From Pseudomonadota bacterium (lineage in GTDB: Bacteria; Myxococcota; JACRCW01; JAFGSX01): DNA of 64,000 nucleotides. The stretch covers positions 31,458 through 95,457 of the forward strand of contig JBDRCO010000063.1 of assembly GCA_043821645.1 (NCBI GenBank), given 5' to 3'. Made by a program: the position numbers and the translations under genes. Positions within the stretch are counted from its first letter, which is position 1, and each line of letters starts with the position of its first letter. Below, in pieces: positions 8,687-43,687 of this stretch. The notes under the pieces were generated by a model. It did not search any database, was not told the DNA's origin, and worked only from the letters and a program-made list of their open reading frames with translations.

Positions 8687-10935
8687 GCTTCTCCCGTCGT
8701 CAATTCATCCAGATCGGCGCCGGTGGCGTCGGTGCAGCCGCGGTGTCGGGACTGTCGACGAACTGGTGGGGCCTGGACCGCAATCCCGTTCCGGATCCCC
8801 AGACCGACGGCGAGCAGGTCATCCCGACCTTCTGCGAGCTGTGCTTCTGGAAGTGCGGTGTGCTGGCCCACGTCAAGGATGGCGTGGTGACCAAGCTCAA
8901 GGGCAACCCCGCCCACCCGCTGTCCCGGGGCCGCCTGTGCCCGCGCGGCGTCGGTGGCACGGGCCTGCTGTACGACCCCGATCGCCTGAAGAAGCCGCTC
9001 ATCCGTGTCAACGCCCGCGGCGGCCAGGAGTTCCGGGAAGCGAGCTGGGACGAAGCCCTGGACCACATCGCCGAGAAGTTGGGCGAGGTGCGCCAGAAGC
9101 ACGGCCCGGAGGCGGTGGCGCTGTTCTCCCACGGCTACGGCGGGTCGTGGTTCAAGCACCTGTGCAAGGCCTGCGGCACACCCAACATCAGCGCGCCGTC
9201 CTATGCCCAGTGCCGTGGCCCACGCGAGGTGGGCTACTACCTGACCTTCGGCAGCGGCCTGGGATCGCCAGAGCCCCTGGACATCGAGAACGCTCGCTGC
9301 CTGGTGTTCCTGGGCTCGCACCTGGGCGAGAACATGCACAACACCCAGGTGCAGGAGTTTGCCGAGGCCATCTCCCGCGGCGCCGAGCTGGTGGTGGTGG
9401 ACCCGCGCTTCTCGACGGCCGCCGGCAAGGCGCGCTACTGGTTGCCCATCAAGCCCGGCACCGATCTGGCCTTGCTCCTGGCCTGGATGAACGTGATCCT
9501 CGAAGAGAAGCGCTACGACGCGGACTACCTGCAGAGCTTCGCCACGGGTCTCGACGAGCTCAAGACGCACGTGGCGGACAAGACGCCGGAGTGGGCCTAT
9601 CCCATCACCGGCATCCGCCCGGAGCTGATCCGCGAGACCGCGCGCTTCATCGCCTCGTTCAGACCCGCGACCTTGATCCACCCGGGCCGCCGCACCACCT
9701 GGTACGGCGATGACACCCAGCGCGGCCGCGCCATGGCCATCCTCACGGCCCTGTTCGGCGCCTACGGCCACCGCGGCGGCATCCTGATGACCTCGGCCAT
9801 GGAGATCCCCAAGTTCCCGCTGAACAAGCCCTACCCCGAGCACAAGGACATCGTGGACAGGCCCAAGCCCAGCATGTACCCGCTTGCCGACGAGGTGCTG
9901 GCCTCGGGCGTGTGCGACGCCAGCATTCCGGGCACCGCGGGGTATGACGTCAAGGCCTGGATCGTCTATGGCACCAACCTGCTGCAGTGCCTGCCCAACC
10001 CCGAGCAGACCAAGAAGGCCATACAGGCGCTCGAGTTCATCGTGGCCATCGACGTGATGCCGTCGGAGATCTGTGGCTGGGCCGACGTGGTGCTGCCCGA
10101 GTGCACTTATCTGGAGCGTTGCGACGAGGTATGGGCGCCCGCCTACAAGCAACCCTTCCTGGCTGTGCGCCAGGCCGTGGTCGAACCCATGTACGAGTCC
10201 AAGCCCGGCTGGTGGATCGCCGCCGAGCTGGCCCGGCGCTCTGGCCACGGCGACTACTTCCCGTGGAAGGACAGCGTCGAGTACGCGATGGCGCGGGTGA
10301 AGGCTGCTGGTCTGGACTGCGACCAGCTCAAGAAGACAGGTGTGGCCCTGGGTAAGATCACGCCGACCTGCATCGAGGAGGGCTTGACCCCGACCTTTGA
10401 CACGCCCAGCGGCAAGATCGAGCTGCACTCTCCGCAGCTCGCCGCCCTGGGCTTTGATCCCATCCCCAACTTCACACCGCCGGACGAACCGCCCCCGGGC
10501 ATGTTCCGGTTGCTGTTCGGGCGTTCGCCCGTGCACACCTTTGGCCGCACCACCAACAACCCGGTGCTGACCAATCTGCAGGCCGAGAACGAGGTGTGGA
10601 TCAACGCCGACGTGGCGCGGGAGCTGCCCGGTCTCGACGGACCGCTGCAGGACGGCGAACGCGTGGTGCTGGTCAACCAGGACGATGTGCGCTCGAACTC
10701 CGTGCGTGCCAAGGTCACCCAGCGCATCCGCGGCGACTGCGTGTACCTGGTGCATGGCTTTGGCCACACCGCGCCCGGACTGCGCTTCGCCCGAAACCGC
10801 GGTGCCAGCGATAGCGAGCTGGTCACCCGCTTCAAGGTCGATCCCATCATGGGCGGTACCGGCATGAACGTGAACTTCGTGCGCATCGAGCGCGCGCCCA
10901 AGGCGTCCACCGCCGAGAGCGGGAGGTCCGCATGA
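8683..10935 (+). CDS. psrA: Polysulfide/thiosulfate reductase catalytic molybdopterin subunit (PsrA/PhsA family)
   Basis: Tat signal SRRQFI; FS0 motif CELCFWKC...LCPRG; Mo-ligand region APSYAQCRGPR; C-terminal molydopterin dinucleotide-binding domain. Confidence 0.85.
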   Translation: MSFSRRQFIQIGAGGVGAAAVSGLSTNWWGLDRNPVPDPQTDGEQVIPTFCELCFWKCGVLAHVKDGVVTKLKGNPAHPLSRGRLCPRGVGGTGLLYDPDRLKKPLIRVNARGGQEFREASWDEALDHIAEKLGEVRQKHGPEAVALFSHGYGGSWFKHLCKACGTPNISAPSYAQCRGPREVGYYLTFGSGLGSPEPLDIENARCLVFLGSHLGENMHNTQVQEFAEAISRGAELVVVDPRFSTAAGKARYWLPIKPGTDLALLLAWMNVILEEKRYDADYLQSFATGLDELKTHVADKTPEWAYPITGIRPELIRETARFIASFRPATLIHPGRRTTWYGDDTQRGRAMAILTALFGAYGHRGGILMTSAMEIPKFPLNKPYPEHKDIVDRPKPSMYPLADEVLASGVCDASIPGTAGYDVKAWIVYGTNLLQCLPNPEQTKKAIQALEFIVAIDVMPSEICGWADVVLPECTYLERCDEVWAPAYKQPFLAVRQAVVEPMYESKPGWWIAAELARRSGHGDYFPWKDSVEYAMARVKAAGLDCDQLKKTGVALGKITPTCIEEGLTPTFDTPSGKIELHSPQLAALGFDPIPNFTPPDEPPPGMFRLLFGRSPVHTFGRTTNNPVLTNLQAENEVWINADVARELPGLDGPLQDGERVVLVNQDDVRSNSVRAKVTQRIRGDCVYLVHGFGHTAPGLRFARNRGASDSELVTRFKVDPIMGGTGMNVNFVRIERAPKASTAESGRSA

Positions 10936-25442: not shown

Positions 25443-25537
25443 GGAGAGTTGGCCGAGTAGGTCGAAGGCGCTCGCCTGCTAAGCGAGTATACGGGCTTAA
25501 ACCTGTATCGAGGGTTCGAATCCCTCACTCTCCGCCA
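25443..25537 (+). tRNA. tRNA-Ser (GCT)
   Basis: GGAGAG/CTCTCC acceptor stem; anticodon arm CTCGC-CTGCTAA-GCGAG; long variable arm; GGTTCGAATCC; encoded CCA. Confidence 0.96.
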
Positions 25538-25538
25538 G

Positions 25539-25577
25539 ACCCGGCCCTGTCGACGTGATGGGGCCGGGTTTTTTTTT
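25539..25577 (+). terminator. Rho-independent terminator
   Basis: ACCCGGCCC...GGGCCGGGT stem followed by a T run. Confidence 0.8.
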
Positions 25578-25626
25578 GCCCGTCGCCGCCCTGCGCAGCC
25601 CTGGCGCGCATTCCTGCACTGGTAGC

Positions 25627-25655
25627 TTGACAGGCCCAGGTGAGATCCTTAGTCT
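25627..25655 (+). promoter_or_regulatory. Sigma-70-type promoter of tRNA-Arg
   Basis: TTGACA-17 bp-TAGTCT, 13 bp before the tRNA. Confidence 0.65.
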
Positions 25656-25668
25656 CCCCCTCCGCGAT

Positions 25669-25746
25669 GCGCCCGTAGCTCAGCCCGGATAGAGCACCGG
25701 ACTACGAATCCGTAGGTCGCACGTTCGAATCGTGCCGGGCGCGCCA
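25669..25746 (+). tRNA. tRNA-Arg (ACG)
   Basis: GCGCCCG/CGGGCGC acceptor stem; TAGCTCAG; anticodon loop CTACGAA; GTTCGAATC; encoded CCA. Confidence 0.95.
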
Positions 25747-31597: not shown

Positions 31598-33589
31598 ATG
31601 AGCCTGATTGCCGTCGAGAACCTGTCCCTCTCCTTTGCGGGCCGCACCCTGTTTGACCACGTGGGTTTTGCGGTGTCCGCCCAGGACCGGGTCGGGTTGG
31701 TCGGCCGCAATGGCATGGGCAAGACCTCGCTGCTGCGCTGCGTCGTCGGCGAGCTGGCTCCCGACGATGGCCAGATCCGCGTCGCCCGGGGCGCGCGCAT
31801 CGGCTACCTGCAACAGGAGATCTCGGCGCCCCGCGAGCTGCCCCTGCTCAGCTCGGTACTGCAAAGCGTGCCTGGCCTGGGTCTGGTGGAGCAGGAGATC
31901 GCCGTCGTCGAGGAGGAACTGGAGCGCACCGAGGACGAGGCCAGTCAGCAGGAGCTGGCGCTGCGGCTGAGTGAACTGTTGCACCGCCGCGAGAACTATC
32001 AGACCTGCTATGCCCCGCACGAGGCCGAGCGCATCCTGGCTGGGTTGGGTTTCGCACCTGCCCGCTTCGAGCAATCCCTGGCCACCTTGTCGGGAGGCTG
32101 GCGCATGCGCGCGGCCCTGGCCTCGCTGCTGTTCCAGCAACCGGATGTGCTGCTGCTCGACGAGCCCACCAACCATCTCGACCTGCCCAGCGTCGAGTGG
32201 TTCGACGGCTACCTCAAGAAGTACCCGGGCGCCTGCGTGCTGGTGTCCCACGACAAGGCCTTTCTCAACAGCCAGATCGCGCGCGTCATCAGTCTGGAAC
32301 TCGAGGGCCTGCGCAGCTATTCGGGCAACTACGACCAGTACGTGGCGCTGCGTGACGACGAGGACGTGCTGCTCAAGAACCGCGCCCGCAACCTGGAGCG
32401 CGAGCGCAAGGAGATCGAGCGCTTCGTCGAGCGCTTCAAGGCCAAGGCCACCCACGCACGCCAGGCCTCGTCCCGGGCCAAGGTGCTGCACAAGATGGAA
32501 AAGGTGCAGACCCTGGCGTTGCCCAAGGAGCTGAGCTTTCGCTTCAAGCCCGCCGTGGCATCGGGCCGCCAGGTGGTGGCGGTGGAGGGCCTGACCAAGC
32601 GCTTCGGCGAGCAGGTGCTGTACCAGGACCTGGACCTGCGGGTGTACCGCGGCGAGCGCGTGGCCGTGGTCGGCGCCAACGGCACCGGCAAGACCACCCT
32701 GCTGCGCATCATCGCCCAGGACCTCGACGCCGACGCGGGCAGCGTGAGCTTTGGCCACCAGGTGCAGTTCGACTACTACGCCCAGCACTGCGCCGACGGC
32801 CTGCATCCGGCGCTCAACGTGCTGCAAACCCTGTGGTCAGACCTGCCCGCCGAGAGCCAGACCGCGGTGCGCGGCCTGCTGGGCGCCTTCTTGTTCTCGG
32901 GCGACGACGCGCTCAAGCCCGTGGGTGTGCTGTCCGGCGGTGAGCGCGCCCGGGTCGCCCTGGCCCGTCTGGTGGCGCGCCCCACCAACCTGCTCATCAT
33001 GGACGAGCCCACCAACCACCTCGACCTGAACGCCAGCGAGGCCCTGGCCGAGGCCATGCAGGCCTACGAGGGCTCGGTGATCTTCGTCAGCCACAACATC
33101 TCGCTGCTGCGCGCGGTGGCCACCAAGATCTGGGACATCCGCGATGGACAGGTGCACGAGGTGCTGGGCGGCTACGACGACTACCTGCGCGCCCGCGAGC
33201 GCGATCAGCAGGCCGCGCGGGATAAAAATCCCCGTCGCGGGGCTCCCCGGGAGGAGGCGCCAGCCGAACCCGCACCTGCCAGCAAGGGCAACCGCAGCGA
33301 CGAGAAAGCCAAGAAGCGCGCCGAGGCCGAGCACAGGCAACAGCTGGCCCGCAAACTCGGTGACCTCCCGCGCCGCATCGCCGAACTGGAGAAGCGCATC
33401 GCCGCTCTCGAAGACAGGCTGGCCGCCCTGGAGGCGGAACTGGCCCGGGCCGATGTGTACCAGGACCAGAGCCGCTACCCCGAGCTGCTGCGCGAGTTCA
33501 CCGAGGGCAAGAGCAAGCTCGACGAGCTCATGGGCCGCTGGGAGCACCTGGAAGAAGAACGGGCTCGCATCGCCGGTCCCCTGGAGTAG
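31598..33589 (+). CDS. ABC-F family ATPase (YheS/Uup-like)
   Basis: Two ABC domains ([35 protein letters not shown]), no TM segments, C-terminal coiled coil. Confidence 0.93.
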
Positions 33590-33597
33590 CCGCGGCC

Positions 33598-34431
33598 TCA
33601 GCCAGGGAGGTCGGTGTGCGCGGGAGCGGTGCCCGTGACCACCTCGCCGCTGGGCGCGATGGTGGTGTTCTCGACCATCAGGTCCGCGGGCACCTCGCCG
33701 CTGGACGCGCGCTTGCGGCTCTCGACCTTGGCCTCACCCATGGCCTTGGTCAGGTTCAGCAGCAGGTCCTGGCCCCTGTGCATCATCTCCGCGTCGTCGA
33801 GCAGCGAGCCCTGGTCGGCGGCGGCGCTGGCCGCGTGGCTGATCTTTTCAAAAGTGTCGACCAGGTGCGTGTGCAGCTCGCCTACCTTGACGCGGGCGAG
33901 GGAGTCCTCGGCCTTTTCCCGTGCCACCTCGCCGCTGGCGCGCTCGAGATCCTGGAGCACCCTGGCCGGGAACGTGAGCACCGCGTCCATGGCTCCGAGC
34001 TTCCTGAAGCTGTCCCCGTGCAGATCCACCCGCGCCTTCACCTCGACCAGGAAGTCCTTCATGTCCTTGACCGTGCGCGGCGAGCCCAGTCCAAAGCCGG
34101 CGGCCTGCAGCAGCACATTGCGGCGCGCAGCGGGAGCCTGGCGCGCCATGCTGGTCATCATGCTGCGCCAGGTCACCACCTTGGCCATGAGGCCCTCGCG
34201 GGTGCGGATGGCATCGGTGGTCTCGGCCTGCTCGCGCAGCAGGGCATCGAAGGCGTCGCGATAGGCGGTGATGTCGCGGTCGAGGTTGCCAAACCAGGTG
34301 TCGCCCAGGCTCGCCGACACGAAGGCGTCGAACCAGCTTCGATGCTTGTCCAGCGGCCCGCGGGTCATGGCGCTGTAGAAGTACAGGTCCAGGTAGCTGG
34401 TGTTGTCGAGATACATGCTGTCCTCCATCAC
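33598..34431 (-). CDS. Hypothetical all-alpha-helical protein
   Basis: 277-aa ORF with GC-rich third positions and amphipathic helical pattern; no recognised motif. Confidence 0.7.
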   Translation of the reverse strand: MMEDSMYLDNTSYLDLYFYSAMTRGPLDKHRSWFDAFVSASLGDTWFGNLDRDITAYRDAFDALLREQAETTDAIRTREGLMAKVVTWRSMMTSMARQAPAARRNVLLQAAGFGLGSPRTVKDMKDFLVEVKARVDLHGDSFRKLGAMDAVLTFPARVLQDLERASGEVAREKAEDSLARVKVGELHTHLVDTFEKISHAASAAADQGSLLDDAEMMHRGQDLLLNLTKAMGEAKVESRKRASSGEVPADLMVENTTIAPSGEVVTGTAPAHTDLPG

Positions 34432-34519
34432 GCGCCGGGTGTGCCGGCGCGGCCTGTGGGCCCGCGGGCCCGGTTAGAAAACACCGCTGAAGGGGTGTGT
34501 TCGGCTCTGCAGGGAGTGC

Positions 34520-34850
34520 CTCGGACCCTGTCGCATCGCGGATCGGACCCTGTGCAGGGGCTGACCTGACCCTGCACACCCGCGGGCCTCACGCAGCATG
34601 GTCGGTGGCGGAACCCGGCAAGCAGCGTGATCGGAGTCTGCGCGGCGGGTCGTTGGCATGCGCAAGGGGGGGCATGGGAGTCTGCGGGCAGTGGCGTGGC
34701 CCATGTCCTTCAGCGCGCGGGCCCTGTGATCAGGCTCCAGGGACCCTGTACAGGGCACGTCCTGGGTAGAACGTTGCGCGCTCGGGGTCAGCCCAGGCCG
34801 GCAGGGGGTCTGCAAGCGGGTTCCGGGCGTCTGCACAGGGCTCCGCAGGC
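34520..34850. repeat. Degenerate array with about 22-bp period (GACCCTG/GAGTCTG core)
   Basis: GACCCTG at 34524, 34546, 34568; AACCCGG 34612; GAGTCTG 34634, 34678; GGCCCTG 34720; GACCCTG 34742; GGGTCTG 34806; GCGTCTG 34827. Confidence 0.5.
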
Positions 34851-35127
34851 CCCGCCCGCGGCAGCGCGCACAGCCGCTCACCCCGCCGGCAAGGGCAGAA
34901 AAAGACGTGCCAAAACAAGGCCCTGCCCCCCCCAACAGCGTCCCCCTGCCCTGGCAGTCCGGCGATCGCCAGAGCGAGCATTGGTCTACGATCAGTGTGC
35001 TAGGTGATCAACCGAAAATTCAGCGGTGAGGTCGGTGGAGGCGGGAAGGTGGGGGGGGACTCTGGCGGGAGGCCCGGGACCCGGGGTCGGCTCTAAGTGT
35101 TCTGAACTACAGGGAGTGTAATTGGCT

Positions 35128-35245
35128 GGCACCTTCTAGGGGGCACCTTCTAGGGGGCCTCCTCCGGCAGGTGAGGAAGGGTGCGGTGAGGAAGGGTGCT
35201 GAGGAAGGGTGCCAGGCACATGTTTCAGGGCACATGTTTCAGGGG
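35128..35245. repeat. Stuttered tandem repeats around palindrome GTGCC-A-GGCAC (REP-like)
   Basis: GGCACCTTCTAGGG x2 (35128-35155); TGAGGAAGGGTGC x3 (35172, 35187, 35200); GGCACATGTTTCAG x2 (35215, 35229). Confidence 0.85.
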
Positions 35246-35375
35246 TGAGTCGAAGATAGAGTGGCGCCCTTGATCAGAAATGTTCGTGGCGATTCCGCCT
35301 GCGGGGGACGCGGGCGATGCTCCAGGCACCACGGCCCACAGCGCCGCTGGCGGGGAACGGGAGAAAGGGACAGAC

Positions 35376-36608
35376 GTGCTGCGCAGGTACCGCGGTCTGC
35401 CAGGTCGGGTCTACGTGCTGTGCCTGGGGACCTTCATCAACCGCGCAGGCACCATGCTCGTTCCTTTTCTCGCCCTGTACGTGCAGGGCGAGATGGGGCT
35501 CGACGAGCAGGTCGCGACCCGGGCCATGGGAGCGTTCGGCCTCGGCGCCATGATCGCGTCGGTATTGGGCGGACACCTCACCGACCGCCTGGGGCGGCGC
35601 GCGGTCATGCTGCTCGGTCTCGGTGGCGGCGCGGCCATCCTGCTCGTCTTCTCGTCGTTTAGGACGCCGTTCTCCATCTACGCGGCCGTCTTCGCGTTCG
35701 CCCTGCTGGCCGAGATGTACCGTCCGGCCTCGTCATCTATGATCGCCGATCTGACCAGCGGCGAGCAGCAGACCCACGCCTTTGGCCTGATGTACTTTGC
35801 CATCAACCTGGGTTTTTGCCTGGGACCCCTGATCGGTGGAGTCCTGGCCGCACGCTCGTTCCAGCTCCTGCTGTGGGGAGATGCGCTCACGTCGCTCCTC
35901 TTCGCCCTGATCATCTTCGTCTGGATACGCGAGAGCCTTCCTGCGCGCGTGGCGGACGACGACGGCACGGTCACAGCGCAGGTCTCTCTCACCGCCGCCG
36001 CGCGTGTCATCCTGCATGACCGGATATTTTTACTGTACGCCTTGGCCGCGTTGCTGTGTGCCGCAGTCTACATGCAGCTCGTGTCCACGTTTCCGCTCTA
36101 CCTCAGGCGACTCGGGATCAGTCCTGCGACCTACGGTCTGCTCCTCTCCATCAACGCCGCCATGGTCGTCTCGCTGCAGCTCCCCGTCACGTCCCTGGTG
36201 GCTCGGCTCCCGCGCGGCTGGGTGATGGCTGTCGGCACCTTCTTCATCGGCGCTGGCTTTGGACTCATGGGCTTCGCCGCCACAGCCTGGCAGTTTGCCC
36301 TGTGCATCGTGACCCTGACAGCGGGTGAGTTGCTGGCCTTTCCCCTGAGCCAGGCGATCGTCGCGGACCTATCGCCTCCGTCGCTGCGCGGACGCTACAT
36401 GGGTGTCTTCGGGCTCAGCTTCTCCATCGCGATCATGGGAGGCGCACCCCTTGGCGGCATGGCCCTGGTGCACCTGGGCGGCGGCTGGACCTGGGCGCTG
36501 TGCTTTTTTGTGGGGTCCCTGTCCACGGGATTGTACGTCGTCATCCGGCGACAGCTCGCGGTCAGGGAGACCGTCAACACCGGAGACGAGGAGCGAGCGG
36601 GGACCTAG
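35376..36608 (+). CDS. MFS transporter (MdtH/MDR-like); start uncertain (35280 or 35376)
   Basis: GTFINRAGTM, motif A GGHLTDRLGRR, AINLGF..GP; about 12 TM. Confidence 0.9.
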   Translation: MLRRYRGLPGRVYVLCLGTFINRAGTMLVPFLALYVQGEMGLDEQVATRAMGAFGLGAMIASVLGGHLTDRLGRRAVMLLGLGGGAAILLVFSSFRTPFSIYAAVFAFALLAEMYRPASSSMIADLTSGEQQTHAFGLMYFAINLGFCLGPLIGGVLAARSFQLLLWGDALTSLLFALIIFVWIRESLPARVADDDGTVTAQVSLTAAARVILHDRIFLLYALAALLCAAVYMQLVSTFPLYLRRLGISPATYGLLLSINAAMVVSLQLPVTSLVARLPRGWVMAVGTFFIGAGFGLMGFAATAWQFALCIVTLTAGELLAFPLSQAIVADLSPPSLRGRYMGVFGLSFSIAIMGGAPLGGMALVHLGGGWTWALCFFVGSLSTGLYVVIRRQLAVRETVNTGDEERAGT

Positions 36609-36735
36609 CGCTTTTGCGAGGGACGGGGATGCCTCCGGAAAAGGTGTCACATGAAGCGCGCGGCCCGCGCAAACGCGCGCCTTGCCGCCATGGCTCGGCG
36701 GCGCAGATGTGGGAGCAGGTGACGTCGTCAGGTCG

Positions 36736-37163
36736 TCAGCTCAGTTCGAACGCGCGCTCGGCCTGGGGAGGTGCTCGCGGCGGGTCGGAGAGGACCCCAC
36801 GCCGCACCAGCAGCCGGATCACCTGGCCGGCGATGACCTCGACCAGCCGCTTGATCTCGCCATCCGACGGCGGTGGTGTCTGCACGACACAGGCGGCTGG
36901 TCCAGGCCGTTGCCGACGCAGATGCCGTCGAGCAGCAGCGAGTGGGAGTGCCAGGCGAGCCTCAGGTCCGAGTTGGCGCGCTGGATCACGGTGATGGCGC
37001 CGGTGCGGCCGCTATCGTGCCCCATTATCCGTGCGCGCCGGCGGCACCTTCACGACACCGCTCACAGGGACACGGCGAGCACGTCGAAGCACAGCGCGCC
37101 GTCCTATGCCAGCCTGTAGCGCCACTCCATGGGCAGGGTCAGCACCCACTGCCGAACCGGTAC
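36736..37163 (-). pseudogene. IS91-family transposase remnant (stops, frameshift, internal deletion)
   Basis: Manual translation VPVRQWVLTLPMEWRYRLA*...RTGAITVIQRANSDLRLAWHSHSLLLDG, then frameshift to PPPSDGEIKRLVEVIAGQVIRLLVRRG joined directly to terminal PRAPPQAERAFELS*. Confidence 0.8.
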
Positions 37164-37431
37164 CACTCGACTTCAGCGTCGACGACGTCAACGACCCTGA
37201 CGACGAGTGCGTGGTCCACGAGACCTTCCACGCGGCGCTGCTGCGCGCCGGCGACAGCGAGACCTCCGTCGAGACTTGTCAGGACTGCGCGGCCTACGAG
37301 GCCGAGCAGCAGACCGCCTTCGGCCGCAGCAGGGTGCTCGACGATTGCGCCCTGGCCTGGCTGGCGCAGCTGGATCGGCAGCCCCGGCGACGACGACCGG
37401 CACCGCCGCACTGGTCGATGCTGCCCGCGCC

Positions 37432-38568
37432 CTACTGCGGACAGAGGTCGCCGCCGGCATTATCGGCAAAGGTGTTGCCGCCGAGGTCGCGCAGCTCGAC
37501 GCTGCTCTGGTCGTAGCGCACGCCGCAGCTTGCACTGTGCTGGAAGAATCCGTCCTGCAAGTCGACGCGTCCCCGCTCGATCGAGACGTTGGCGGGGAAC
37601 AAGGTGCCGCCGCCCGCGTACTCGACGGTGAGGTCGTGGAGGTTGAGCGGCGACTCTGGCGGCGCGTTGTCGACGGCGATCCACAGGCCCTGCCACGCGC
37701 CCCGCACCCGGTTGAGGGCGCTGAAGGTGACGTGGCCATCGCGATCCGTGCTCAAGCTCCCGGTGACCCTCAGACGCACGTCGTCCGCCATCAGCCAGGT
37801 GTTGGTGTCTTCGAGGTTGAGAGAGCCGATGATGTCGATGTCTCCGCTGATCTCGTAGGGGACGCCGGGATCGGGGACGACCGCGGTATCGATCGTGCCC
37901 GATGCCACCAGGATGCGATCGGGAGCGTTGTCACGGTAGGTGTTGCCGCGCTCGATGTGACCCATGCCTTGCGGTGCCACGCGCACAGGGTACGAACTGC
38001 AGCCCTCGATGGTGATGGCCGCGAAGTCCGTCAGCAGCCCCGCCTCGTCGACCCAGACCCCGATGCCCTCGATGTTGCGCAGCTGCACCGAGCCCAGTGA
38101 GACTTGTCCGACGACGGTAAGGGCGCCCTTGAACGCCGGGTCCGTGAGCGCGCCCGCGTCCGAGATGCTGACGTTGAGCAGCCGCGCGTGGCCCTGGCCC
38201 GTGGTCTCGAATCGCAGGCCCTTCCAGTAGCCGCGTCGCGGTTCGGTGCCGCGGAGCACGATGGTGGGTGCGCCGATGCTGACGGCGGTCAGGCGCGCCG
38301 CGGGTCCGAGCGTGAGCCCGGCGCCGGCCGCAAACTCCAGGATCACGCCCTCGCCGATCTCCAGTTCCACAGCGTCGACCTCGGCCAGGCAGTCGACGAC
38401 ATAGTCCACCTCACGGCCCTCGCCGTGCTCGAGCTTCAGGTCGGCCCCGAAGTCGCCGCAGCCGAGGTGGCGCGTGCCCCCCAGAATGTCGAACCAGCCG
38501 CAGGCGCTCACCGAGAGACCAAGCGCCAGGGCTCCGGCGGCACCGAACAGCGCGCGCGCTGAGAACAT
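37432..38568 (-). CDS. Lipoprotein with probable right-handed beta-helix repeats
   Basis: Lipobox VSAC; internal duplication RGYWKGL/RGAWQGL..AG; GNTYRDNA/GNTFADNA. Confidence 0.78.
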   Translation of the reverse strand: MFSARALFGAAGALALGLSVSACGWFDILGGTRHLGCGDFGADLKLEHGEGREVDYVVDCLAEVDAVELEIGEGVILEFAAGAGLTLGPAARLTAVSIGAPTIVLRGTEPRRGYWKGLRFETTGQGHARLLNVSISDAGALTDPAFKGALTVVGQVSLGSVQLRNIEGIGVWVDEAGLLTDFAAITIEGCSSYPVRVAPQGMGHIERGNTYRDNAPDRILVASGTIDTAVVPDPGVPYEISGDIDIIGSLNLEDTNTWLMADDVRLRVTGSLSTDRDGHVTFSALNRVRGAWQGLWIAVDNAPPESPLNLHDLTVEYAGGGTLFPANVSIERGRVDLQDGFFQHSASCGVRYDQSSVELRDLGGNTFADNAGGDLCPQ

Positions 38569-38650
38569 GGGACCTCCCCGGCCATTCGCCCGAGAATAGC
38601 GGGCACGGGTCCGCACACACAACCCAGCCGGATGGGAGGTTCGCCCCCCA

Positions 38651-38770
38651 GGAAAGGTGCTGGCGATAGGTTGGTGGCACCCTTTCCACCAGCACCATTT
38701 CCACCATTTCCAGGGGCGATAGGTTGGTGGCACCATTCAAAGGCACCATTCAAAGCACCTTTCAAAGGGG
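38651..38770. repeat. REP-like hairpin plus stuttered tandem repeats
   Basis: Hairpin GGAAAGGTGC...GCACCCTTTCC (38651-38687); GGCGATAGGTTGGTGGCACC at 38662 and 38715; CACCATTTCC and GCACC(A/T)TTCAAA repeats. Confidence 0.88.
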
Positions 38771-38802
38771 CGCGCTCTTGGACTTTGCGTTGGCCTCGGC
38801 GC

Positions 38803-40209
38803 TCAGGGCTCGGGCGTGTTGCTGCAAACCACTGGCGTCACGCGGTGACACAGGAGGGCCGGGTCCATGGCCTGTCCCGCGAGCCGCGCATCGATGAAGG
38901 TGAGGATCTCGGGATAGGACCAGCCCGTGGCCTGGGTGTGGCTGGCGCCCGCGCACTCGAGGTACTGCAGGCGCATGCCCGCCTGACACAGGGTGTCGAA
39001 GGACGCGCGCTCCAGGGGTGTGTGCACCAGGGCGTCGGCCTCCCCGAGCACGAACAGCAGGCCGAAGCCGTCCCCCTGCGGGGTGAGGTGCTGGACGGGG
39101 GTCTGCAGCAGGCTGTTGACCTCGAGCATGCAGCCCCAGGGTGCCATATGCGCGAGCGAGTTGCTGGCGGCGGCCTGCAACAGCGCCGGTGTGTACAGAT
39201 CCTGGATGGTCAGGTCCTGCACGGTGTCGCCCGGATCGCAGCTCGCGGCCATGGCCTCGGGCACAGCGTCCACGTAGTCCGTCGCGAAGACCTCGTCGAG
39301 ACTGGCATTCGCACCGTACCACTCGGCACCGGCGGCCAGCATGACAGCGGTGTTGGCCGAGGCGGGAACCGTCTGCTGCAGGGCGCGCTCGGCCTCGCCG
39401 AGCAGATCCGCAGGTGGCACCGTGGCCACGCCACCGACCAGGGTCAGCTCGCGGGCGTAATAGGGCTGCAAGCGGTCGACCCACAGCGCCGCGTGCCCGC
39501 CCTGCGAGCCGCCAAACAAGGCGAGTCTGGGGTGCACACAGCGATCGGGCTGGGCGTCGTGCACGATGTGATCCGCAGCGCGAACAGCGTCCAGGGACGC
39601 GATGGCCGTGGCTTCGCCCACGAGATAGGGGTGCAGAAAGCCCGTTGGGGGGCCCATGGCCTTGAGGCCGATGTAGTCGGGCGCCACCGCGACCATGCCC
39701 AGCGACGCGAACAGGCCCACCAGCGAACGCGCCTCGTCGTCGACGGAGGGACCGCAACCATCGGTGAAACCCGAGGTCCCGTGCAGGATGAGCAGCATGT
39801 CCAGCGCCCGCTCGGCGCTGGCGTTGGTGGGGTAGCCAACCAGGGCCGTGGCCTCGACCAGCACGCCGCGGTCCTGGGTGCGATACAGGATCTGCTCGAC
39901 CCGCACGTCGTAGCGAGGCGGACGAGGCAATGTGATGTCGCCGACCAGCGCCGTCAGCTCGAGCACCGCGGCCTCGTAGTCCACCTGTGCACCACGCTCG
40001 ACGATCTCGCCGAGCCGGTCCGAGCGCAGCCAGCGATAGGCGGGCATGCCACAGCGCGCGGGCGCACTGGCCAGGAGATCGGTCTCGGCAGTACCGGCCA
40101 CCTGGGGTGGCCCGAGCTCGCAGCGCGGGGCTTCGTCGGCGGGAGGAGGGGCCGGGCACGCCACCTGCGAGGTGGCCGCGATCACGAGCAGGGGTGCGAA
40201 CCTGGTCAT
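38803..40209 (-). CDS. Secretory lipase (LIP family) lipoprotein
   Basis: Lipobox QVAC; HGTSG, VAPDYIGL, HPYLVG, GGSQGGHAAL, GEADALV, SH. Confidence 0.85.
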   Translation of the reverse strand: MTRFAPLLVIAATSQVACPAPPPADEAPRCELGPPQVAGTAETDLLASAPARCGMPAYRWLRSDRLGEIVERGAQVDYEAAVLELTALVGDITLPRPPRYDVRVEQILYRTQDRGVLVEATALVGYPTNASAERALDMLLILHGTSGFTDGCGPSVDDEARSLVGLFASLGMVAVAPDYIGLKAMGPPTGFLHPYLVGEATAIASLDAVRAADHIVHDAQPDRCVHPRLALFGGSQGGHAALWVDRLQPYYARELTLVGGVATVPPADLLGEAERALQQTVPASANTAVMLAAGAEWYGANASLDEVFATDYVDAVPEAMAASCDPGDTVQDLTIQDLYTPALLQAAASNSLAHMAPWGCMLEVNSLLQTPVQHLTPQGDGFGLLFVLGEADALVHTPLERASFDTLCQAGMRLQYLECAGASHTQATGWSYPEILTFIDARLAGQAMDPALLCHRVTPVVCSNTPEP

Positions 40210-40560
40210 GCAGAAGTGATAGCGGAATCAACCCGGCAATTCCACGTGCAAGGTGACGGCGTCTTGGCGCCGAGATTCCATGACGATACGGACTGAAGTT
40301 CTCGAGGGTGCATCGTCAATTCACAAGACACGACCCCGGATCTCCCAGGTCTCACAGATCCGAGATTTCAGATACCCGGATCCCCAACGCCCCCTCGGAC
40401 TCCGCGCTCACGCCTCGCCTAGGTTCCGTCGCCGGCCCTCAGCTTCTTGCGCATCTTATGACGAAGATCTTGGTGCAGCTGCCGCGTACCCCTTCGTATT
40501 CGATGATCTCCCGGGTCAGGCCGTAGGAAACATGAAGTGCCTCCCCGTCGCCAGCTAACC

Positions 40561-40579
40561 GTGCCACCCACCTATCACC
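40561..40579 (-). repeat. Inverted copy of the 20-bp REP-like motif
   Basis: GTGCCACCCACCTATCACC is the reverse complement of GGCGATAGGTTGGTGGCAC with 2 mismatches. Confidence 0.75.
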
Positions 40580-40741
40580 TCCTGCGACTGAATCTTTACA
40601 ACCGGCAGCGCTGCTCCGCTCTTGCAGCCATTGACATGAGCCAGGCCCCGGCAGGTCAGAGACAAATGTCGACTGGCAGCCGCCTCCAGCCGTGCGTTGT
40701 TCCGGATCGTCGCGCACGGATGACAGCTGCCGAGATTAGGT

Positions 40742-41653
40742 TCAGGCAGCGGCAGTGCGGTACGGAAGTGGTGGCCTGTAGCAGTAGCGCGGGAACTCGA
40801 CCGCGTAGTCACCGTCTCGGAAGCGATTGGATGATTCCCGGTAGGCCGCCAGCACTTCCTGGTACTGGCGACGGTACTCCTGCCGGGCAGCGCGGGTGGC
40901 GGCGTGACACATGGGCCGTCTAGAGCACTTGAGACGACGTGGTCGGTGGTGCGGGCGCTGACGTTTCACCGCCTCGGATCCGGCCACGGGCCGGCATCCG
41001 CGCTGCGCGCGCGCGCTCGCCTCGTGCTCGCGGACCAGGGACAGCACACGCTCCTGGCGCGCGGCAGCGCTCAAACCTCTCCAGCATGGCGCCACCGCGA
41101 CCTGCAGCGGATAGCGCTCGGAGCAGGACGATTCACTGGTCTTCGGATCCCTCTGTCGACGACGCCATAACTCGGTGCGGTTGAGCCACGTGAACTCCCT
41201 GCGCACGCCTTGCGTCAGCTCCGGCAGGCTGCTCATTCCTGGCCACTGCCGGGCCTTGTTGACGAGACCCTCCTTGACGCCGTTGGACAGCAAGTAGCCC
41301 AGCCTCTCGACAAAGGACTTGTCGTCGAGGATGGGCTCGGCCGAGTAGCGTCTTTCCCAGAACGCTCCTCGCCAGTCAATGAGGCGGCCGACCTCGCGCG
41401 CGATGTTGCCCTGCAGGTGCGACATGAATGGGGCGAGCTGTCCTTCTGCAGCCCGGACGATCAGGTGGAAGTGGTTGGATAGGAACACGAAGGCGAAGAT
41501 CTCGACGTCAAAGAGGTTCAGGGCACGGGTGAGCACCCCACCGATGAGGTCATTGATCTGTGGCGATGGCGTGAGCAGCAGCCGGCCTTGCTGGGTCCGG
41601 TTCGTGACAAAGTAGAGCCGGTGCGGCTCGATGATACGCAGGGGGCGGGCCAT
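40742..41653 (-). mobile_element. REP-associated tyrosine transposase (RAYT-like, Y1 HUH family)
   Basis: MARPLR, YFVTNR, HUH motif SNHFHL, FWERRY, catalytic Tyr in GYLLSNGVKEGLV, WPGMSS; flanked by repeat motifs. Confidence 0.88.
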
Positions 41654-41723
41654 GGCAGGCACAGACAGCAAGACGTGGGCCAGCGGCGATGTCGAAAAAA
41701 CGATGAGGGATCGCGAACCCGTC

Positions 41724-41884
41724 AACCCTTGCTGTCGCAACTTGATACGCCCTGTCGCAAATTGCAGCGGGCCTTGGCGATAGGTTGGTGGCACCATTTC
41801 CAGGTTGGTGGCACCATTTCCAGCACCATTTCCAGGCATCATTTCCAGCGACCCTCACTGGTGCAGGTTGCGACAGCAGGGGTC
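41724..41884. repeat. REPIN-like structure: about 17-bp inverted arms enclosing tandem REP-like repeats
   Basis: ACCCTTGCTGTCGCAAC (41725-41741) vs GTTGCGACAGCAGGGGT (41867-41883); inside, GGCGATAGGTTGGTGGCACC at 41776, AGGTTGGTGGCACCATTTCC again at 41802, then GCACCATTTCCAG and GCATCATTTCCAG. Confidence 0.85.
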
Positions 41885-41992
41885 GTCAGGTGCCTTGCCC
41901 GGGGTCGCCCGGTGCCTTCGCAGGGTGTACCCCCACCGCGCGCTCGCTGCCCCCCTGCCCTGACAGTCCGGAGATCTCCAGGCCGAGGCAGC

Positions 41993-43683
41993 TCAGTACT
42001 CGCGCGCCTCCAGCGCTTGCGCGCCCTGGCGCAGCGCCACCTTGGCCACGACGATGCTGAGGACCAGCGAGCCCGTCAGCAGCCCGATGATGCCAAGCCA
42101 GCTCGGCGTGGACAGGTGCCAGTGGTAGGCCGTCGACGAGAGCACGCGGTAAATGGGAAAGGCCTGCAGCAGCACGAAGGCAAACAGCAGCACCAGCGCA
42201 CCGGTCATGTAGAGCAGGCCACCGAAGCTGGCCGCGACCTTGACCGAGTTCTCGGCCTTGAAGTCGGGCATCATGGCGCCCAGTCCCGAGGCCAGGGCGC
42301 AGATCGCAAAAGCCAGCACCGCGGCATCCACCACGGCCAGCGCCTGCACCAGAGGCTCGGTGTCGAGGATTCGGTTGGATGCGATGGCCAGCACCTCGCC
42401 GAAGAGCAGAACCGGAAGCGCCCCGGCCAGCCACTTCGCGCGCACCAGCTCCCGCGCCGTGGTCGGCGCCGTGCGCAGGATCCAGATGCCACGGCCCTCG
42501 GCCGACACCGACGGGTACACGAAGCGCGCGGCCACGGCGGCCTGGACGAAGCCGGTCATGCCGATGTTCAAGAACGCCACTGCATTGCGGTACATGGTGG
42601 TGTCGACGTTGAGCGCGTCGAAAGGCAGCGCGTAGATGCTGAACAGATAGATCGCCACCAGCGCCACCAGCAGCACCAGCTGACTCCACTGGGAGGCGTC
42701 GCGCACCAGCACCTTGAGGTCCTTGGCCAGCACCGCACCCCCCGCGCGACCAAGCAGCCGCGAGGCCATGCGCTGCAAGCTGGTGCCGGAGAGACCCCGA
42801 AGCCGCGCCGGGCGGCCTTCCTGCGCACGCGACCAGCCACCCAGATAGAGAGCCGAGGTGATCCAGGCCGCGAGCACCACGAAGGCGGCGCCCCACAGAG
42901 CCAGGAATCCCGTCGAGGACAGGGCCTGGGACAGGTTGCCCCGCATGGCGGCACTGAGAGCCCTGGCGGCCCAGGTCGAGGGCAACCAGCCCGACTGCGG
43001 GATGACCAGGGTCGACAGGAACTGGGCCACGCCGTTGAAGGCCTCGGGGTTGACCAGGCGCTCGGGTCTGAGGAAGCGGAACACGAACCAGGCACCGCCG
43101 AGAAAGAGCGCGGTGATGATGATCAGCAGATCGCGCGCGGCGCGTGCCGGGAAGACGTTGACCAGACCCGTGGTGACGACGACACCCAGGCAGGCCGGAA
43201 TCGCCAGGAAGCCTGCACCGACGATCACAGCCAGGCCATAGTAGCTCAGCGGCGCCCCGTGCACGGCCCCATACGCTCCGATCACAGGTACTCCGAACAC
43301 CACCACCATCCACGACGAGGCCGCCACGCTCTCGGCGAAGCGCGCGTAGAAGAGTCGCAAGCGCGACACCGGCGCCGCGTTGATGAGTGTCAGCTCGTCG
43401 GACATGTAGAAGGTGGCCAGCGAGGTGACGATGTTGCTCAGCAGCAATACACCCGAGAAGGACAGCAACAGCAACATGAGCAGGCGGTCGACGAGGTAGG
43501 GCCCGAGCAGCTCGACGCCGAGCAGGATCCTGAGCAGGTACACCAGACCCGCGTAGAGACCGACCCAGACCCCGGCGATGAACAGGCTGGCGGCGATCAC
43601 CTTGCCCCAGCCGCTCCCGTCGAGGCGACGGGCCCGGTTGGCCACGATGCGAACTCGCGGGTACAGCAGAGACGACGCGGCGA

Positions 43684-43687
<4 letters not shown>
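41993..43687 (-). CDS. Putative ABC transporter permease
   Basis: Multi-TM; KDLKVLVRD..QWSQL; RFVYPSVSAEG..IWIL. Confidence 0.85.

Follow-up and report, generated by a model that had tools for sequence, protein, structure and literature searches.

A probable TIRtron-type unit of a RAYT-related Y1 HUH enzyme, and the dispersed family of its flank repeats, in a Myxococcota genome

Short repeats that flank a transposase gene and recur beside unrelated neighbouring genes raise the question of whether the enzyme captures genes or spreads its own flanks. This question is posed by a block of 8 kb, running from an ABC-F gene to a gene for an ABC_tran_2 permease-like protein, in the myxococcal assembly GCA_043821645.1 (7.07 Mb in 140 contigs, G+C content 67%; G000 below, with contigs numbered from C1). 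The names of homologous proteins put the genome in the Myxococcota. The block lies in a 64,000-nucleotide stretch (G000:C63:31458-95457), which we call the window and to which positions without a contig name refer. A reading of the letters alone (the sequence-only reading) had described it as a REP-associated tyrosine transposase (RAYT) next to single-gene cargo bounded by motifs resembling repetitive extragenic palindromes (REPs), a candidate integron-like capture system. We consider another explanation probable: the Y1 transposase gene and its inverted flanks (about 40551-41850) form a unit of the TIRtron type, the gene-less flanks elsewhere in the genome are a low-copy repeat family, and the block is a hotspot of several elements and no capture machine.

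The Y1 gene is located at 40742..41653 on the minus strand and is intact, as supported by a family match, an alignment and a structure model. The open reading frame (ORF) originally listed for it, of 366 aa, extends to 41842 and crosses the upstream repeat array; since the 303-aa protein that begins at the ATG at 41653 aligns from end to end with 27 homologues, this ATG is the most likely start. The first ~140 residues match the NCBIfam family REP_Tyr_transpos (NF047646; E 2.8e-19) and the Escherichia coli protein TnpA-REP. The HUH motif (H61-F-H63) and the tyrosine Y120 are invariant in all 28 sequences, and the AlphaFold2 model is confident (pLDDT 93.2, pTM 0.90). The closest solved structure is that of E. 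coli TnpA-REP (4er8_A; Foldseek E 1.4e-7), which aligned to the model by VIA-align with a Z score of 16.3 over 157 of 165 residues (rmsd 2.7); the next entry, IS608 TnpA, had a Z score of 8.8. The claim of a RAYT-related Y1 HUH enzyme is supported, and so is the claim that copies of its own motif, inverted relative to each other, stand on either side of the gene. The tyrosine motif Y---NP, which the available text of Quentin 2018 (PMC6006769) gives for class 2, differs from that of the window protein (Y-LLS-N-G) and from the family consensus (Y-ILS-H-G).

The C-terminal half of the protein is also conserved, with P234, P238, P247, H250, G281, F287, P288 and P294 invariant. No Pfam family matched this part in any of the 28 members, nor did it give a clear structural match as part of the whole-protein model (best Z score 4.9, for residues 253-303 only). 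The family comprises 370 proteins at E<=1e-10, and among the 120 listed most have 285-343 aa, the names given in the sources are RayT or transposase, and many are encoded on contigs of ~1.2 kb. Members are present in 34 of 61 related genomes, often as several divergent copies; a search of the PLSDB plasmids gave no match to the Y1 protein at E<=1e-10. Two paralogs are found in G000 itself, at C3:61263-62162 (68% identity) and C128:7434-8327 (58% identity). Between the start codon and the upstream array (41654-41775) there are two direct copies of CTGTCGCAA, and homologues in other genomes have the palindrome GTGTCCGAAAWTCGGACAC at the matching position; these sequences may be candidate operators.

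The repeats that flank the Y1 gene form an inverted pair. In the orientation of the gene, GTGCCACCAACCTATC is located 126-141 nt before it (-141..-126) and GTGCCACCCACCTATC, inverted, 169-184 nt past it (+169..+184), and the two match at 15 of 16 positions; analogous terminal inverted repeats are present at the C3 paralog and five further loci. In order to score such sites, a 27-nt profile was built from 17 sites taken from the genome by coordinates. The upstream flank is an array at 41776..41850 on the plus strand, in which the number of units may vary (33.9 and 22.4 bits; 41782-41848 according to Tandem Repeats Finder), and the downstream repeat is located at 40551..40579 on the minus strand (25.2 bits). 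The 20-mer GGCGATAGGTTGGTGGCACC, which had been reported at 38662, 38715 and 41776 and, apart from an inverted copy, had not been noticed elsewhere in the window, is exact at these three places on the plus strand (0.00 expected from 100 shuffles), and allowing up to two mismatches there are no further copies in the 7.07-Mb genome; the backwards control gave 0. The inverted copy that had been placed at 40561 with two mismatches is actually located at 40560-40579 and has three.

Three further boundaries in the block carry related motifs. A solo array of the flank type, which holds the other two exact 20-mers, is present at 38651..38770 on the plus strand (28.2 and 34.2 bits; Tandem Repeats Finder, 38677-38768), and on the same strand a motif of the flank type followed by three short tandem arrays occupies 35116..35245 (27.4 bits; arrays at 35128-35158, 14 nt x2.2; 35170-35212, 15 nt x3.0; and 35215-35244, 14 nt x2.1). 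The third is a weak motif of the GACACC type at 36637..36653 on the minus strand, which scores <14 bits and lies at the truncation point of a multi-copy element; it has only the core GACACCTTTTC in common with eight other genome sites (nine sites in all, versus two for the reversed word). The proposal that the motifs mark gene borders holds for four boundaries at 25-34 bits, and more widely for the 37 of 44 genome sites that are intergenic, but is weak at the 36637 boundary.

Hairpins are not a common feature of these flanks. The proposed hairpin at 38651-38687 does fold (-9.7 kcal/mol), but it is a modest one: the region 38645-38692 has a z score of -1.67, and 14 of 200 shuffles were equally good. 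The downstream repeat (40545-40600) does not fold (z -0.20). Around the upstream array, the inverted arms GCTGTCGCAAC and GTTGCGACAGC (41731..41877, plus strand) give a DNA fold of -32.2 kcal/mol (z -3.49; equalled by none of 200 shuffles), in which a long-range stem of 12 bp encloses the array at 41776. Part of a 28-mer, GACCCTCACTGGTGCAGGTTGCGACAGC (41850-41877), makes up the outer arm of this stem; the 28-mer is identical at C18:4810-4837 and 96% identical at C15:519-542, inside another shared segment. The motifs called REP-like are instead inverted flank repeats made of tandem sub-units, and their layout matches that of TIRtrons and TIRYTs better than REP hairpins.

Each paralog has its own variant of this design. 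Upstream of the C3 paralog there is a 31-nt x3 array ending in GTGCCACCAACCTT, and downstream of it GGTAGGTGGCTGGCACCTTTCCTGGGG, an inverted repeat of the GGCACCTTTCC type. The C128 paralog has flanks of the GGGGTCAC/GACACC type, with CCCCGAAAAGGGGT x2 on the upstream side and GACACCTTTTCTTGGG on the downstream side. We surveyed the flanks of 18 loci, namely these paralogs and loci in further Myxococcota genomes. At 6 of the 18, the gene lies within an inverted pair with a score of 13 or more, and tandem arrays with a period of at least 10 are located 89-370 nt from the gene at 14; of the remaining loci, L017 has a weak 1.9-copy repeat, and L024, L029 and L032 have none within 400 nt. The array units vary by lineage, and many end in AAGGTGCC or, on the far side, begin with GGCACC. 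Such an array, GGCACCATTTTTG x2.3, is found even beside a homologue with just 39% protein identity.

The flank repeats also occur without a Y1 gene. With the 27-nt profile, 44 sites of at least 18 bits were found in the genome versus 1 in the reversed genome, and 36 versus 0 at 20 bits or more. Their intergenic location was judged with a crude GC3 gene caller, which marked 83.6% of the genome as coding. Five small accessory contigs, together 68.8 kb or 0.97% of the genome, contain 25 of the 44 sites. Merging sites no more than 150 nt apart gives 39 loci, 31 of which have a neighbouring locus within 5 kb; in 2000 trials of random placement, the mean was 1.9 such loci and the maximum 10. The word GGCACCTTTCC occurs 15 times, mostly between genes and on short contigs rich in mobile-element genes. 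On the motif-rich contigs, there is a site in nearly every gap between unrelated genes. Thus, on C54 two sites (251, 414) are followed by a short-chain dehydrogenase/reductase (SDR) gene, a site (1743), an M78 peptidase gene and a site (3672), and on C112 nine sites stand among genes for a peroxiredoxin, a Crp-family regulator, a flavin monooxygenase, a RibD_C reductase, an IS3-type transposase and proteins of unknown kind. On the 95-kb contig of the window, all six sites of at least 18 bits fall in the block (35116+, 38664+, 38717+, 40551-, 41778+ and 41798+).

Not every search singled out the family. A strict search for exact tandem pairs led by GGCACC gave 8 matches; permuted hexamers gave a median of 2 and a maximum of 12, and since several of them did as well, this count does not set the family apart. 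A metagenome scan with GATARGTKGGTGGCAC yielded at least 119 loci, nearly all of them chance matches, and none of the 119 listed had a Y1 gene (tblastn, E<=1e-3). Three of these metagenome contigs (L059, L103 and L125; 1.1-1.7 kb, no Y1 gene) have GATAAGTGGGTGGCACC followed by tandem arrays of the GGCACCTCCTCC type with GGCACC units, a combination seen only in these three among the loci listed; the architecture is that of the flanks described here, in another community. The single hit of GATAGGTKGGTGGCACCNTTYC across 185,579 species genomes, in an alphaproteobacterial metagenome-assembled genome, was taken as chance.

These data can be accommodated as follows. The unit would consist of a tyrosine HUH nuclease related to RAYTs that has inverted repeats of its own on either side, and in these repeats short tandem sub-units share a GGCAC core. 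Each of the three divergent paralogs of the genome has its own flank variant, and the gene-less flank copies make up a low-copy family of ~39 intergenic loci concentrated in accessory regions. Presumably, the enzymes introduce nicks into single-stranded DNA, in the GGCAC-core units or next to them, once inverted copies fold back on each other, and re-insert copies mostly nearby; this would account for the clusters as well as for the tandem arrays. The block itself would be a hotspot of insertion and recombination to which several unrelated elements contributed: the Y1 unit together with a single solo array, a remnant of the IS91/ISCR type whose element end is split, and the duplicated module.

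Movement at the motifs was looked for in the contigs (Logan) of four runs, X1-X4, from three studies, at low depth; X2 and X3 come from one sample, and X1, the best holder of the sequence, may be the source sample. Contigs without differences bridge 36492-36712 (X4), 38492-38844 (X2), 40523-40789 (X3) and 41906-42221 (X3), and X2 covers 41919-42206, so that these samples have the same arrangement. None of the 15 joints listed (there are 78 more) is at a motif; those listed fall in ABC ATPase sequence that is conserved and belongs to other organisms. Contig data reveal neither rare variants or circles nor strand information. A contig of X1 has one extra 14-nt unit, GGCACCATTTCCAG, behind position 41789, either a copy-number variation or an assembly difference. 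Among the related genomes, none is close enough for a comparison of gene order: in the only one of the same family, G001 (82% complete), the ABC permease gene (70% identity) is located 401 nt from a contig end with a different gene adjoining, and the ABC-F gene is on a separate contig, so that no gain or loss can be read. Because the same junctions recur in contigs of three other studies and no rearrangement at the motifs is seen in them, the integron-like capture model is unproven. Nothing in the data indicates that the motifs act as recombination sites that insert, invert or shuffle cargo; no contig joint listed lies at one of them, and the orientation of the motif pairs around genes is inconsistent.

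Several points weigh against a TIRtron-type unit with scattered flanks. The Y1 protein scores 69.4 bits on REP_Tyr_transpos, below the cut-off of 80, and both paralogs score alike; its Y1_Tnp score of 22.4 is also below the curated cut-off of 23. The helix-turn-helix (HTH) families Bac_DnaA_C, HTH_23 and HTH_28 matched 0 of the 28 members at a Pfam E value of up to 1. The profile count includes the 17 training sites among the 44, and most solo sites resemble the flank of the C3 paralog. The window-type 20-mer is confined to the block, which means that the window paralog shows no spread beyond 3 kb. The extra 14-nt unit is the only relevant change between samples, and slippage or assembly could also yield it; nicking and movement by the Y1 enzyme remain predictions from the sequence. 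Finally, single genes are tightly bracketed by repeats in several genomes, which plain scattering does not predict.

In a first rival explanation, the bracketed genes are themselves mobile. It restates the idea of the sequence-only reading as a mechanism: a segment bracketed by an inverted pair would fold as a single-stranded panhandle, like a REPIN with a gene-sized loop, and a Y1 enzyme would excise and re-insert it in trans, so that arrays of mobile gene units accumulate. We examined six other genomes (G050, G008, G005, G060, G051 and G031), chosen for an easily patterned flank repeat, by searching each with a pattern made from the flank repeat of its own Y1 gene; none of the backwards controls gave a match. 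Of the 12 sites in G050, 3 are at the Y1 locus, and on C220 a methyltransferase gene and a 147-aa gene lie within an inverted pair with a spacing of 2.3 kb. Five of the 8 sites in G008 are at the Y1 locus, and the other three surround one 493-aa ORF, 33 and 11 nt from its ends. G060 has 31 sites, which include three Y1 units, three inverted dimers and 8 sites on the 15.5-kb contig C394, where they stand between 7 unrelated genes, among them those for an rve transposase, a desaturase, an FGE-sulfatase, a cyclase and a histidine kinase. G051 and G031 have 4 and 9 sites, respectively. The dimers of G060 are ~80 nt across (C4:333-431, C250:6722-6818 and C394:8818-8916) and look like miniature gene-less derivatives, similar to REPINs or miniature inverted-repeat transposable elements. 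In G000, the same picture is given by the alternation of sites with the SDR and M78 peptidase genes on C54, by the sites C105:4016(-)..5143(+) around an amidinotransferase-like gene and by the sites C112:10553(-)..12078(+), which enclose a module with a 276-aa gene that is also present in the window in a different context.

Other observations speak against mobile cargo. The polarity of the motif pairs around other genes is not consistent with that around Y1 genes: in G008 and G050, the Y1 units and the gene brackets are opposite in polarity, and the four C54 sites all point one way. In no case did a bracketed unit recur with the two repeats exactly at its ends, and the module copy in the window lacks the left repeat, its homology ending 74-96 nt before the right one. 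All copies in G005 (7/7) are at the Y1 locus, only six other genomes, selected as described, were covered, and the joints listed from the four runs (contigs only) include no joint, circle or inversion at a motif. As cognate repeats flank genes other than the transposase gene, singly or as a pair, in G000 and in three further genomes, we retain cargo mobilisation as an explanation of low probability, unlikely in its general form. The specific version, that the large Myxococcota family of ~300-aa RAYT-related Y1 proteins, with a so far undescribed C-terminal domain, uses inverted GGCAC arrays as handles, and that bracketed genes fold as a panhandle and are moved in trans, which would shuffle single accessory genes and build the arrays on C112, C54, C105 and C67 and on C394 of G060, seems to us rather unlikely.

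Unrelated pieces of mobile DNA account for part of the mosaic of the block. At its left end, a 277-aa gene (33598..34431, minus strand), for which no Pfam family was found at E<=0.01, is the first part of a duplicated module of 1.45 kb; its product has 82% identity to that of C112:10589-11419(-). The whole module (33588-35020: the gene, ~22-nt repeats and a core) has 75% DNA identity to C112:10591-12004, the copy bracketed by profile sites at 10553(-) and 12078(+), and the two copies of the gene stand in different contexts. The second part of the module is a non-coding composite (34780..35020, plus strand; 66-67% identity to C112:11740-12004 and C2:30383-30616), which consists of ~22-nt GGGGTC..GGTGCC repeats (~34780-34860; 15 copies on C112) and a conserved core of ~80 nt (~34939-35020), CCCCCTGCCCTGGCAGTCCGG..TACGATC..GATCAACCGAAAAT. 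It is present as three full copies (window, C112:11510-12004 and the gene-less C2:30150-30616) and a partial one, each followed within ~100 nt by a motif of the flank type, and it had no Rfam match. The partial copy, with the 22-nt repeats and the first ~40 nt of the core, is located at 41879..41985 on the plus strand (86% over 37 nt to 34942-34978; 76% over 88 nt to C112); it constitutes a direct repeat of 34780-34975, and the two are at the two ends of the block.

The middle of the block contains traces of another HUH element. A frameshifted and truncated transposase fragment of the IS91/ISCR Y2 type, with frames interrupted by stops, is present at 36740..37170 on the minus strand and has 88% DNA identity to C16:757-1096. 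The IS91 label given to it is probably right. The C16 homologue matches the NCBIfam model for ISCR clade Ia with an E value of 3.2e-14; its 52 bits fall far short of the full-length cut-off (925). By feature and structure matches, the Atlas clusters nearest to this homologue are Y2_Tnp, while Pfam found nothing in the C16 ORFs. Next to the fragment, 36655..36787 (plus strand) is the inner part (~nt 122-250) of a multi-copy element end of ~250 nt (86-93% identity to C16, C128, C77, C112, C15 and C138; 72% to C82). The terminal 35 nt (nt 1-35) of this end are detached, at 40519..40553 on the plus strand, directly against the downstream repeat of the Y1 gene. The end starts with CCGTAGGAAACA and recurs at no fewer than seven other places of the genome (C16, C128, C77, C112, C15, C82 and C138), often at contig ends, which suggests an IS91/ISCR-type element breaking the assembly. 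The downstream repeat of the C128 Y1 paralog (..GATTCGTCTGACACCTTTTCTTG; C128:8552) recurs with extended homology at C16:1222, ~110 nt from the Y2 fragment there, a second place where Y1 and Y2 HUH element types adjoin.

ISCR elements capture neighbouring genes by one-ended rolling-circle transposition, and delivery of this kind could account for 36655-40553 as a whole: the Y2 fragment, the lipoprotein gene, the solo array and the lipase gene would be a rolling-circle product integrated via a break in the ~250-nt end, with the Y1 repeats as bystanders. The two pieces of the end are in circularly permuted order and in the same orientation, with the segment between them, as expected if a circle had been opened within the end; the Y2 fragment stands directly beside the inner part, and the end is present elsewhere as described. 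This arrangement fits the integration of such a circle, or equally two independently truncated copies, which would look alike. Moreover, the assembly contains no intact Y2 gene (tblastn gave only fragments, on C16, C63 and C77), the exact 20-mers within the segment are left unexplained, and the ~250-nt end is presumed, from its position and a resemblance, to be the origin end of an IS91/ISCR-type element, which counts against this explanation. We consider it improbable.

TGGCAC is the -24 element of sigma-54 promoters, followed after five bases by the -12 element TTGC. A regulatory role of the GGCAC-core motif, as an operator or promoter element to which a host protein binds and with gene regulation, not mobility, behind its border position, is very improbable: its sites are intergenic and the 22 site-bearing spacers are more often convergent or divergent than co-directional (7 convergent, 8 divergent and 7 tandem versus 697, 805 and 2000 of all spacers), but the orientation to neighbouring genes is mixed, many sites lie just past stop codons, the motif occurs in tandem arrays with periods of 12-31 nt, its sequence changes between genomes in step with the flanked Y1 gene, and the sigma-54 reading was rejected because the sites carry CTGG, CCAG or AAAG instead of a -12 element.

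Of the remaining genes of the block, two carry the labels proposed for them and encode a major facilitator superfamily (MFS) transporter (35280..36608, plus strand; MFS_1, E 1.2e-49) and a secretory lipase (38803..40209, minus strand; LIP, E 3.6e-18). A third encodes a lipoprotein-like protein of 379 aa without a Pfam family (37432..38571, minus strand). The identities of the ABC-F and ABC_tran_2 neighbours were likewise upheld, and the Y1_Tnp match of the transposase, though weak, has an E value of 1.4e-4. Both the lipase and the lipoprotein gene are patchy in distribution: of 41 genomes searched, 8 have the lipase gene (E<=1e-20), G001 of the same family not being one of them, and a single one, G000 itself, has the lipoprotein gene. 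The G+C content of the block is only slightly lowered (0.62-0.66 versus ~0.68-0.70). There are no tRNA genes within the block, and Rfam gave nothing relevant for 33000-43000, the single match being to a miRNA model (E 0.34). Genes for tRNA-Ser(GCT) and tRNA-Arg(ACG) are located at 25443-25746, 8 kb upstream, and no link to the block was seen.

RAYT relatives flanked by terminal inverted repeats (TIRs) have been catalogued before; the present locus and its relatives give this class a concrete and testable anatomy, with a conserved GGCAC core in tandem sub-units, an inverted placement around the gene and gene-less copies packed in accessory DNA. If the repeats only scatter in the way that REPs do, REP-type biology would reach into the Myxococcota, where both the repeat design and a protein domain would be new. 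Should the repeats mobilise the bracketed genes, bacteria would have a new route for assembling accessory gene arrays, and arrays used as panhandle handles would be an HUH-based counterpart of cassette systems without a tyrosine or serine recombinase.

How does the unit compare with known systems? Integrons have an IntI tyrosine recombinase gene beside the array and attC sites at the cassette ends. The block resembles them in that a short recurring site stands between genes that are unrelated and mostly single, but no integrase family was found in the 13 ORFs scanned (31598-43687), genes and sites are in mixed orientation, no common promoter end was identified, and by eye the motif is not an imperfect palindrome of the attC type. 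XerC/D dif-like modules, in which a dif site has two halves that are inverted copies of each other, were rejected by eye, as the motif halves are not. Like ISCR/IS91 elements, the block has a Y2 HUH fragment and a multi-copy element end whose permuted order fits circle delivery of neighbouring genes; these are, however, remnants only, and have no relation to either the Y1 enzyme or the motif of its flanks.

The IS200/IS605 family shares the Y1 HUH fold (IS608 and ISDra2 TnpA; Foldseek E 1e-5 to 1e-3), and by analogy single-strand cutting and joining would presumably proceed as in these elements. Different from them, the unit has no identical copies (the paralogs are 58-68% identical), its ends are inverted and are not subterminal hairpins on the same strand, one end does not fold, and no tnpB gene adjoins it among the ORFs scanned. 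The REPtron of E. coli TnpA-REP (RayT/YafM, 4er8) is closer: it gives the best structural match, with the HUH motif and the catalytic tyrosine, and in both cases the gene stands within inverted cognate repeats that are intergenic and clustered. However, the window has no GTAG-tagged palindromes and its hairpins are weak or absent, the repeat family has tens of copies (~39 loci) instead of hundreds, there are three paralogs, and the window protein has ~160 extra residues and is below the cut-off of the NCBIfam family.

The likeness is greatest to TIRtrons and TIRYTs, which have been equated with RAYT group 1 in the available text of Bertels 2017 (PMC5581495) and Quentin 2018 (PMC6006769). As far as the accessible text of Di Nocera 2013 (PMC3733652) describes them, these are RAYT-like genes flanked by TIRs, and the TIR families are moderately abundant and occur in dimers or clusters; many TIRs, though only some, carry GGGG[AT][CG]A[CG]. 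TIRYTs form subclass 2.1 of TnpA-Y1, have C-terminal HTH-like domains and were found without REP-like structures, according to the accessible part of Quentin 2018 (PMC6006769). Neither PMC3733652 nor PMC6006769 reports an assay of such enzymes in the text available. The unit differs in that flanks of the window type are arrays of tandem sub-units of 12-31 nt, and in that none of the three domains Bac_DnaA_C, HTH_23 and HTH_28 was found in the 28 members of the family, whereas such a domain is reported for all published TIRYTs of subclass 2.1. Copies that are concentrated on a small number of accessory contigs and stand to either side of genes are also not described in the text of PMC3733652 and PMC6006769, whose figures and supplements may bear on this. 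Like TIRtrons, the unit has a RAYT-like Y1 gene whose flanks are inverted repeats and not REP hairpins, there are several divergent copies in a genome, the protein is lengthened by a C-terminal extension that is conserved, and the flank repeats likewise form a moderately abundant family in dimers or clusters (44 sites versus 1; 31 copies in G060). The C128 flank unit GGGGTCAC fits GGGG[AT][CG]A[CG], and the window core GGTGCCAC fits it at 6 of 8 positions, a consensus that only some published TIRs carry. The link to RAYTs is right in kind, but a TIRtron-like unit, belonging to a large Myxococcota family of its own, is the better label for the locus.

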